4,444 bases of DNA from a virus. Taxonomy: Duplodnaviria > Heunggongvirae > Uroviricota > Caudoviricetes. The stretch lies in the IMG/VR virus record IMGVR_UViG_2537561506_000014; one strand, given 5' to 3'. Shown piece by piece: positions 1 through 3,000 of the stretch. Made by a program: the position numbers. Numbering within the stretch: the first letter of the stretch is position 1; every line of letters begins with the position of its first letter.

Positions 1-3000
1 TTTGAAAAATATAATTTTATTTCATCCTCCTGGTCACTTTGGGGCACGTCTGGGGCACGGGCATTAAGGACATTATTCAACATGGCAACCTGAGTCACGC
101 TGCACTCAGGCATCCATGCACCATAAACATTGTAGACCATGCTGGCGCTGGAGTGCCCCATCTGTGATGCAATAAATGTCGGGTTTGCTCCGGCAGATAA
201 AGCCCAGCACGCATAGGTATGGCGTGACTGATACGCTTTACGGGATCGGATACCCGCTCTTTTTATTGCTGAATCCCATGTCGCTCCGATGGAGCTTACC
301 GCGTAGTTAATACCCGCCTTGTGATTCTTGCGAACGATTTGCGGACAGAAAACAAAAGTGCACTCGTGCAAAATTGTTCTTCCGTACTCGCGTAATTGAA
401 CAGTGATCTGATGCTGCCTGCTAAGACGAGTAAGCATCGCCTGGTTTTTAAGTGCTTCAATTGCTGGTGCCAGAAGATGTATAACCCGGTTAGTGCCTGC
501 GTCGGTCTTTGGTAGCGTAAAATCACCTATTTTTGTAAAATTTCGTCGCACTGTTATCGTGCCAGCTTTCAGGTCGATATCCTCCCATGCAAGTGCGGCA
601 ATTTCACCGTGTCGCATCCCTGTAAAAACAGCCACTGTCCAGAGGTTTTTGGTCTGTTGATGATGGCAGGCATCAATGAGACGGCTAAACTCATCTCTGG
701 TCAGTGGATCCGGCACTGGTTTTGATTTCCTCAGCGGTGTTATTGAATTAAAGGGGTTTTTCTCCAGATACCCGTTTTCGGCGGCAAAGCTGAACATTCC
801 GGCTGTTGTTGTCATGTAATAGTTCACTGTGGGTACGGTTCTTCCTTTTCGGGACGTGCTGGTTTTCCTGCTTCCCTTTTCCCCGGTCAGTAAATCTTTC
901 CTGATAAACAGCAGATCTTCTTTTGTAATCGATGACGCCAGCCTGCCAGGACCAAGCCTCGGTAGCATATTTTTCATCACTGATTGATAACGATTTAAGG
1001 CGTTACTACTGATTTCCATTACTTTCAGAGTAAGCCATTTCTGTGCCAGTTCACCGACGGTGATATCTTTTTTTACCAGGCCAAATAGCTTCAGGTTAGG
1101 TGAGTCAGGGAATCGATCGGCATAATCAAACGTTCCTGTTCTGATTGCAAAGCAGACCGAAGCCCTTAACTCACCAGCGATCTTTCTGTTTTTCGGTGTA
1201 TCGGGCACGCGAAGATTTTCGCGCACTCGTTTACCCCTGTACTTAAACGTTATTCGGAGTTTTCCTCCGTGATTTTCAACGCCGGCTGGATAGGCTGAAT
1301 TCGCCATTGTTCCTCCTGCGTCCAAGAGCACGCTCAGGTTATACTCTTATGGACAAGAATTAAACATCCTGAGATGGTAAGGGTTGGTTTTTGATCCAAG
1401 TGTTGATGGTAGGAAGATGATAGAGACATTCGCTGTTTTTCTTTGGCGTTCCGTCGGGGGCGATTTGTTTATATTCTCTGCCGTTCATCCACGCACTGTC
1501 CCTGGCGCGTAATATTGTTCCTTTTCTCAGGCCTGTTACAGCCATTAAAAGCTCCAGTGTTACCCATTCATTCGCATTTATCTGTACAACAGGTGTGATG
1601 ACTGGCTGAATGCCATGGTTATGTTGGTTTACTAACTCGCGCATAAGTTGCCTCTGCATGTGTAAGAAAAAACCGCCCGAAGGCGGTTGTCAGTTGATTG
1701 ATGTACGGCGCATTTTTCGAAGGCTGGCAATATGCTTTTCCTTCTCAATTTCCGCTTTAATCATATGCAGTTCGTTGTGCTCGATTCGCTCAAATTCTTC
1801 ATTAAATGCACCAATTGAAGTGGCTCTGGTTCTGCCGTCGAGCCTTCGGTAGATCACCTGAGTCAGAGTTACCTTGCATATTTCTACCGGATAGTTGTTG
1901 GCATCAACGAAAGACTGCCCGCGCTGGATCAGGACGAACACTGGTTGTATTCCTTGAGTGCCATATCATAAACACGGCATGCCGAGAGGTGTGTTGTAGT
2001 CAACGTCGTTCGTATCCTGAAAAGTCCATGTGTTGTGACGGTAACTTCCGGGGCTTTGAGTTTCACTGCATCAACGATATGCTGATGTTTGCGGCTTTCG
2101 AATATAGAGCTGGAGATAACCACACTTGCTGTTAAACCGTAACTTTCAAATGTGATTTTCATGTCATTATCCTCGCAGTTAGCCGGGCAACAAAAATAAA
2201 TAATGTTGTTCCTGCGAATAACAGGATACCGCCCGTCATTAGAGAAAGGAAAAACAATATTAATGTACGCGGGTTGTTTCTCAAAATATTCTCTCTGTGA
2301 TTCGCTCACTCTGACAATTCGTTGATCAAGTCACGGTATTTATTCAGTTCTTGCAGCGCCTTACATGCACCCTCCCATCGTTTCTGTTTCCGCCCGGCGC
2401 GACGCGCTTCTTTCCGTGATTTACGTAGCAGGTCACCTATAATGTTGTGCTGCACTGGCTGCACTGGCTGCACTGGCTGCACTGGCTGCACTGAGGCGAT
2501 ATTTGGTTTTTTGTCCACTTCCCTTGCAACTGCCTGCCAGATGTCATTTTTTACAGTTACTACCCCCTGGTTTTTTAACTTCCATAGAGTGTCAATAACG
2601 TCATTCAAATCAATATTGAGACCTTTAGAAATACTTTCGGCTGATGCTTTTCCTAATTTGTTCAATTCTGTGAGCACTGCGTTCATTTTTTTCTCCTGAT
2701 ATTTTAATGTCGGTGGGGCTGTTATACGGTTGGTGAGGTGTCAGCTTCTTCTACCAGCTTTTCCAGTTCATCCAGCTTGCGGGAAAGAATTTCACCAAAC
2801 AGATGAAGTTCTGCATCTGCTGTAATCGGGATTGGAACAAATCGTATTCCACTTCTGGCAAGTTGCAGGTTAGCCACGGTTAACCTCCTGCGGCGGTTCC
2901 GGTAGCGGCATCCAGTGTGTGGCCTGTTCAATACCATTACCATCAATACCATTACCAGGCGCAACCGTTATCTGCCCACGCCGAAAGGTGCTTCCTGTAT

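Follow-up and report, generated by a model that had tools for sequence, protein, structure and literature searches.

An integrase-excisionase module of the 933W/Sp5 type and its attachment core in Escherichia coli wrbA

Phage lambda recombines with its host by means of an arm-binding tyrosine integrase and a small directionality factor, at an attachment site that has a 7-bp overlap and arm-type repeats on both of its arms; its xis-int pair lies at the end of the early-left operon, with att next to int. In the record of phage 933W (GenBank AF125520) a 7-bp "attL core" is annotated at 1..7, int at 29..1363 and xis at 1392..1691, and the last 7 bases, GTTTCAA, are given as the "attR core". The Sakai prophage Sp5 (VT2-Sakai), an Stx2 phage at wrbA, excises and circularises (PMC2669165), and its attP was sequenced from the excised circles; the alignment of this attP to attL and attR gives tcatgGTTTCAACATGTctaagg, which holds the core of the 933W record (PMC2669165 Fig. 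S5). Stx1a phages of O26:H11 are described as the G3 group, which is likewise integrated at wrbA (PMC10042803). Rac, whose target in E. coli K-12 is ttcA, integrates in the 5' end of the host gene and replaces its N-terminus, and its XisR protein both induces Rac excision and binds the Rac att site (PMC4632033). The wrbA system is thus already known: module, target and core have been in the literature and in GenBank since 1999-2009.

The window, by which we mean the whole stretch of 4,444 nucleotides analysed here, is almost certainly the attL end, next to int, of a 933W/Sp5-type lambdoid prophage inserted in the 5' part of E. coli wrbA. At the DNA level its int is 99.6% identical to that of 933W over 1-1331, 99.5% identical to that of Sp5 over 1,331 bp and 99.3% identical to that of phi191. 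Among phage records the nearest are the Stx1a phages of O26:H11, with 99.7% identity over 1-3679. The order core, int, xis is that of the 933W record and the core bases are the same, whereas the accessory genes to the right of xis differ between the two (mosaic). All sizeable open reading frames of the window are on the minus strand, and the features that make up the recombination module and its surroundings are the following.

1..1307, minus strand: int, tyrosine integrase of the 933W/Sp5 (wrbA-targeting) type (ORF, Pfam, identity to 933W int)
1098..1289, minus strand: N-terminal arm DNA-binding domain of Int, residues 7-70 (PF12167, E 6e-26, 90.7 bits)
123..704, minus strand: catalytic domain of Int, residues 202-395 (PF00589, E 2e-17)
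612-614 (R232), 507-509 (K267), 231-233 (Y359), 222-224 (R362), 153-155 (H385) and 123-125 (Y395), minus strand: catalytic codons of Int (alignment)
1360..1644, minus strand: xis, excisionase (recombination directionality factor) of the DUF1233/XisR family, 94 aa (PF06806, PHROG 539, XisR homology)
1671..1688, minus strand: intrinsic-terminator-like hairpin with T run, just upstream of xis (sequence scan)
1690..4444, minus strand: co-oriented early-left accessory genes (Pfam, PHROGs)

The integrase frame (3..1331) is open at the window edge and reads through position 1, just as an earlier reading of the sequence alone (hereafter the sequence-only reading) had it. The likely start is the ATG at 1307, with AGGAGG 6 nt upstream, which places 435 residues within the window. 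Far from running on for hundreds of codons, a prospect that the same reading had raised against itself, the gene ends with a single further codon (K) and TGA in a 100%-identical contig; the window holds 435 of the 436 codons and the coding sequence ends 4 bp to the left of position 1. The full 436-aa gene occupies 12457-13767 of this E. coli contig, JH945489.1 (L009 below). The domain search proposed earlier returns both the catalytic and the arm-binding domain. The PF00589 match scores 63.9 bits, above the curated cut-off of 27.1, and Int belongs to PHROG 1, "integrase" (E 9e-85); the Pfam and PHROG matches of int and xis are far beyond chance.

Alignment to Tn1549 Int, XerA, Gp33 and Rac IntR places the catalytic residues of Int at R232, K267, R362, H385 and the nucleophile Y395. 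The HxxR box has Tyr359 in place of its first His, as has Rac IntR; this position is known to vary among tyrosine recombinases. The motifs had been labelled "RHRY-type", which is right in substance because R232, K267, R362, H385 and Y395 are present and Tyr359 is shared with IntR. IntR has the same domain architecture at 44% amino-acid identity, and the Int of the window extends beyond the IntR end by a C-terminal tail of 21 residues. The domain matches argue for a tyrosine recombinase with a separate N-terminal arm-binding domain, that is, a heterobivalent, lambda-like integrase. Its mode of working would be that of lambda, but the family of the arm-binding domain (PF12167) is a different one.

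The small Xis-like gene that had been noticed 52 bp upstream of int on the same strand is xis, and the gap is 1308..1359. An alternative ATG at 1659 comes directly after the terminator-like hairpin and has no Shine-Dalgarno sequence. Two profiles match the protein, PHROG 539 (excisionase, E 7e-37) and PF06806 ("putative excisionase"), the latter at E 1e-30 and with 105 bits where the cut-off is 22; Rac XisR, a member of the same Pfam family, is 35% identical (E 7e-11), and the NMR structure of a "putative excisionase" (PDB 2KVV) is matched at E 1.6e-6. In Pfam, PF06806 is the sole hit at E<=0.01, and the lambda-type Xis family gives no match. By homology the protein would work like lambda Xis, although it is assigned to the PF06806 family and not to that of lambda Xis. 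The homologues returned by the search are near-identical or frameshifted copies only, useless as an alignment, and a single-sequence AlphaFold model (mean pLDDT 45.8) is too poor for fold comparison.

The hairpin (1688-1671) stands between the DUF4222 gene and xis. Because int and xis come last in the early-left operon, downstream of this terminator, their expression probably depends on antiterminated early transcripts made after induction; by analogy with lambda, such early-left transcripts would probably read through 1671..1688. Unlike lambda, the region near xis has no lambda-type CII site: a search for TTGC-N6-TTGC near xis or int finds none. A scan of the window for sigma-70-like promoters gives hits at chance level.

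To the left of position 1 we rely on genomic sequence. The exact 297-aa DUF551 protein of the window locates four E. coli assembly contigs, and one of them, JH945489.1 (GCA_000303395.2), is 100% identical to the whole window over L009 9320-13763, minus strand; the left flank is read from this contig and not from the source record. There int continues with K and TGA, followed by 22 bp, TTGAAAC and the 3' part of wrbA, which reads on the int strand, leftward of position 1, as a-TGA-taaaccatatccttagtcatg-TTGAAAC-gatggcacgcgc. The core TTGAAAC lies 26-32 bp to the left of position 1, 22 bp beyond the int stop, and falls in wrbA codons 15-17. The host genes after it are a 192-codon wrbA remnant, yccJ and agp. 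In the three further, near-identical contigs wrbA, yccJ and agp also adjoin int, and the same int-wrbA layout is annotated in O26:H11 strain 11368 and in UTAK-12. The four forms of the attachment site compare as follows.

attL, int strand, L009 and L001 (O26:H11 11368): ccttagtcatgTTGAAACgatggcacgcgc
attB, int strand, K-12, identical in an O157:H7 strain with an empty site: gtacggacataTTGAAACgatggcacgcgc
attR, int strand, O26: gtacggacataTTGAAACcatgaagcatt
attP, int strand, packaged phage phi191: ccttagacatgTTGAAACcatgaagcatt
attR junction: ggacatattgaaaccatgaagc

TTGAAAC is common to attL, attR, attB and attP and is present once in the empty wrbA sites of K-12 and O157; attB equals, exactly, the left of attR joined to the right of attL. 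The sequence-only reading had expected a core just past the int 3' end, repeated at the other end of the prophage, and a host junction within tens to hundreds of base pairs of position 1, and core and wrbA are found in just these places. It had allowed for a tRNA or a host gene at the junction; the host gene is there, and no tRNA is found near it, the target being the 5' part of the protein gene wrbA. The window itself contains no Rfam family. That the attachment site lies just left of the window is true of the core, but a candidate part of the int-proximal arm (37-57, below) is inside it. The 7-bp identity is embedded in an 11-12-bp near-identity, ACAT(G/A)TTGAAAC, and in attP it is flanked by inverted CATG, the layout that would be expected if a 7-bp overlap lay between two core-type sites. 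Between the int stop and the core, 933W differs from the window type by one SNP (ccttagA vs ccttagT). A 9-nt core-like copy at 76-84, TTCAACATG, was dismissed, as it is about the chance expectation in 571 bp.

Integration would proceed as follows. The catalytic and core-binding part of Int would act at CATG-TTGAAAC-CATG, and strands would be exchanged inside or beside TTGAAAC, the 7 bp common to phage and wrbA. Xis, as a homologue of the proven Rac XisR, would bias the reaction to excision (attL x attR). As with Rac, the 5' end of a host gene is entered and its N-terminus replaced; the target gene and core of Rac differ from wrbA and TTGAAAC. The Sakai sequences bear on the exchange points. 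In Sakai twelve bases (ACATGTTGAAAC) are common to L, R and P, while with the O26 and K-12 wrbA alleles only 7 are identical. Immediately left of TTGAAAC the Sakai attR, ACATGTTGAAAC, has the phage-type G, whereas A occupies this position in the empty wrbA sites of O157 and K-12 and in the O26 attR, which read ACATATTGAAAC. Either this base can take part in strand exchange or the ancestral allele was a different one, and therefore the exact exchange points are not fixed by these sequences.

The arms of the attachment site carry a repeat that would suit the N-terminal domain of Int.

37..57, minus strand: candidate arm-type Int site pair GTGCCCCAGA / GTGCCCCAAA, 11 bp apart, on the int-proximal att arm (repeat)

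This pair, inside the last 20 codons of int, reads CTTTGGGGCACGTCTGGGGCA in the window and GTGCCCCAGAcGTGCCCCAAAG on the int strand, and the same 21-nt unit is found again on the attP arm distal to int. The motif TGCCCCAA (TGCCCCA(A/G)) is found twice at 40-57 and four to six times on the other arm, on one strand, and the 11-bp spacing within pairs is seen on both arms. Around the O26 attR, a 10-kb stretch has four GCCCCAA, and all are inside 49 bp on one strand, spaced by 11, 20 and 11 bp, at a distance of 124-172 bp from the core. Contig L009 has four GCCCCAR matches in 21 kb, of which two form the 11-bp-spaced pair in the int 3' end. The distal arm of 933W has six TGCCCCAA copies, through a duplicated block, against four in the O26-type phages. 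We regard these repeats as candidate arm-type sites to which Int probably binds, and together with PF12167 they fit a lambda-like heterobivalent integrase. The N-terminal domain would probably occupy repeats on both arms, the two at 37-57 within the 3' end of int and, on the other arm, four to six at some 125-170 bp past the core, an arrangement (2 int-proximal, 4-6 int-distal) unlike that of lambda. Our literature search found no mention of arm-type sites for 933W, and their in-silico assignment is a small addition of this work.

The proximal sites fall in the 21-residue C-terminal tail of Int, and that part of the reading frame may therefore be constrained as DNA and not as protein. In phi191 the distal-arm repeats read TGCCCAAA, with one C fewer, and int (L007 1497-2809) is annotated as two coding sequences, an integrase and a DUF3596 fragment; these could be homopolymer sequencing errors or real frameshifts.

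Among 5,426 complete E. coli genomes, the int-xis stretch is present at coverage of at least 80% in 215, and a 260-bp probe spanning the int-wrbA junction, at the same threshold, in 216. In nearly all the others the probe matches from position 122 onward only, which is native wrbA; the complete module therefore always abuts wrbA. This sets the left boundary of the prophage and identifies the insertion site as wrbA, a locus in routine use for typing phages of this kind, which frequently bear Shiga toxin genes. No new biology is added.

Two other accounts of the window have to be set against an attL end in wrbA. The DNA might come from a free (circular or linear) phage or from a phage record, in which case the other att arm, as attP, would be found to the left of position 1, an arrangement that phi191 has with its 99.3%-identical int. 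We hold this to be very improbable: no record in the phage collection covers more than 83% of the window, the sole 100% match found is a bacterial contig in which wrbA, yccJ and agp adjoin int, and three more near-identical bacterial contigs also have wrbA beside int. A rearranged or defective prophage, with an intact module that marks one boundary of a phage no longer excisable in its entirety, is a less remote prospect, and we consider it possible, if on balance doubtful, for the window. The O26-type genomes provide its case. In O26:H11 11368 (NC_013361.1) attR is at 1270929 in wrbA and attL at 1559001, and in UTAK-12 (NZ_CP168981.1) attR is at 2065232 in wrbA and attL at 2355510, in the same orientation in each, so that attR precedes attL by 288-290 kb; recombination of lambda-like prophages with one another, accompanied by chromosome inversions, is reported for the O26:H11 lineage (PMC10042803), and the separation fits prophage-mediated rearrangement of that lineage.

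With attL and attR some 290 kb apart, some copies must therefore reside in rearranged prophages that are not excisable as one unit, and an intact int-xis is no guarantee of an excisable prophage. Contig L009, moreover, ends 13.7 kb into the prophage. On the other side, more than 200 genomes carry int and xis 100% identical to these two full-length genes, and Sp5, with a near-identical module, does excise and circularise (PMC2669165). A rearranged prophage is in any case in no conflict with the boundary, and the attL end of a 933W/Sp5-type prophage remains our reading of the window.

To the right of the module, 1690..4444 holds genes for DUF4222, a 77-aa protein, DUF1627, DUF1382, DUF551/EaA-like, an 87-aa protein and a truncated DUF4014 homologue, followed by a gene open at its 5' end. 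Their families are of phages and of unknown function, and in L009 the operon extends further upstream, by way of Ea22-like genes, as far as Gam, Kil and CIII. The sequence-only reading had called every gene to the right prophage cargo; prophage DNA it is, but "cargo" is too strong a word for what are the phage's own early-left genes. The match to the O26 Stx1a phages is 99.7-100% leftward of a mosaic breakpoint at about 3680, inside the DUF551 gene (2870-3763), and there is none rightward of it; judging from the sequences, this departure is ordinary lambdoid mosaicism. The DUF551/EaA-like gene is intact here; the annotations of O26 11368 and UTAK-12 show it as a pseudogene in two pieces.

Several smaller features of this region may be recorded. 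A perfect 9-bp tandem repeat (GCTGCACTG, five copies) at 2449-2493 encodes VQP repeats in the DUF1627 gene, and its copy number varies, the gene product having 126 aa here, 123 aa in contig L010 and 120 aa in O26 11368. The DUF4014 (PHROG 1832) homologue at 4039-4260, minus strand, has an in-frame stop at codon 7, with its C-terminal 47 codons open, and an intact paralogue, 88% identical, is found further up the same prophage (L009 6898-7116). The early-left region of this prophage also holds, on the opposite strand, a ParE/ParD toxin-antitoxin pair (L009 8029-8591), about 730 bp past the right end of the window.

At the junction itself, the int stop overlaps the ATG (aATGA) that opens a hybrid wrbA of 192 codons (L009 13764-14342; L001 3422-4000). 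The first 9 residues of the hybrid (MINHILSHV) are phage-encoded and replace native residues 1-15, which we take to include the SMYGH flavin-phosphate loop; the hybrid WrbA is most likely inactive. One might suppose instead that wrbA is not simply broken and that the int-coupled hybrid yields an altered WrbA in lysogens, as Rac does for TtcA, and, separately, that the C-terminal 21 residues of Int exist only because the frame crosses its own arm-type sites; these ideas we think improbable. PGAP annotates the hybrid gene as an intact NAD(P)H:quinone oxidoreductase, and that annotation pipelines call the truncated wrbA intact is a further small addition of this analysis.
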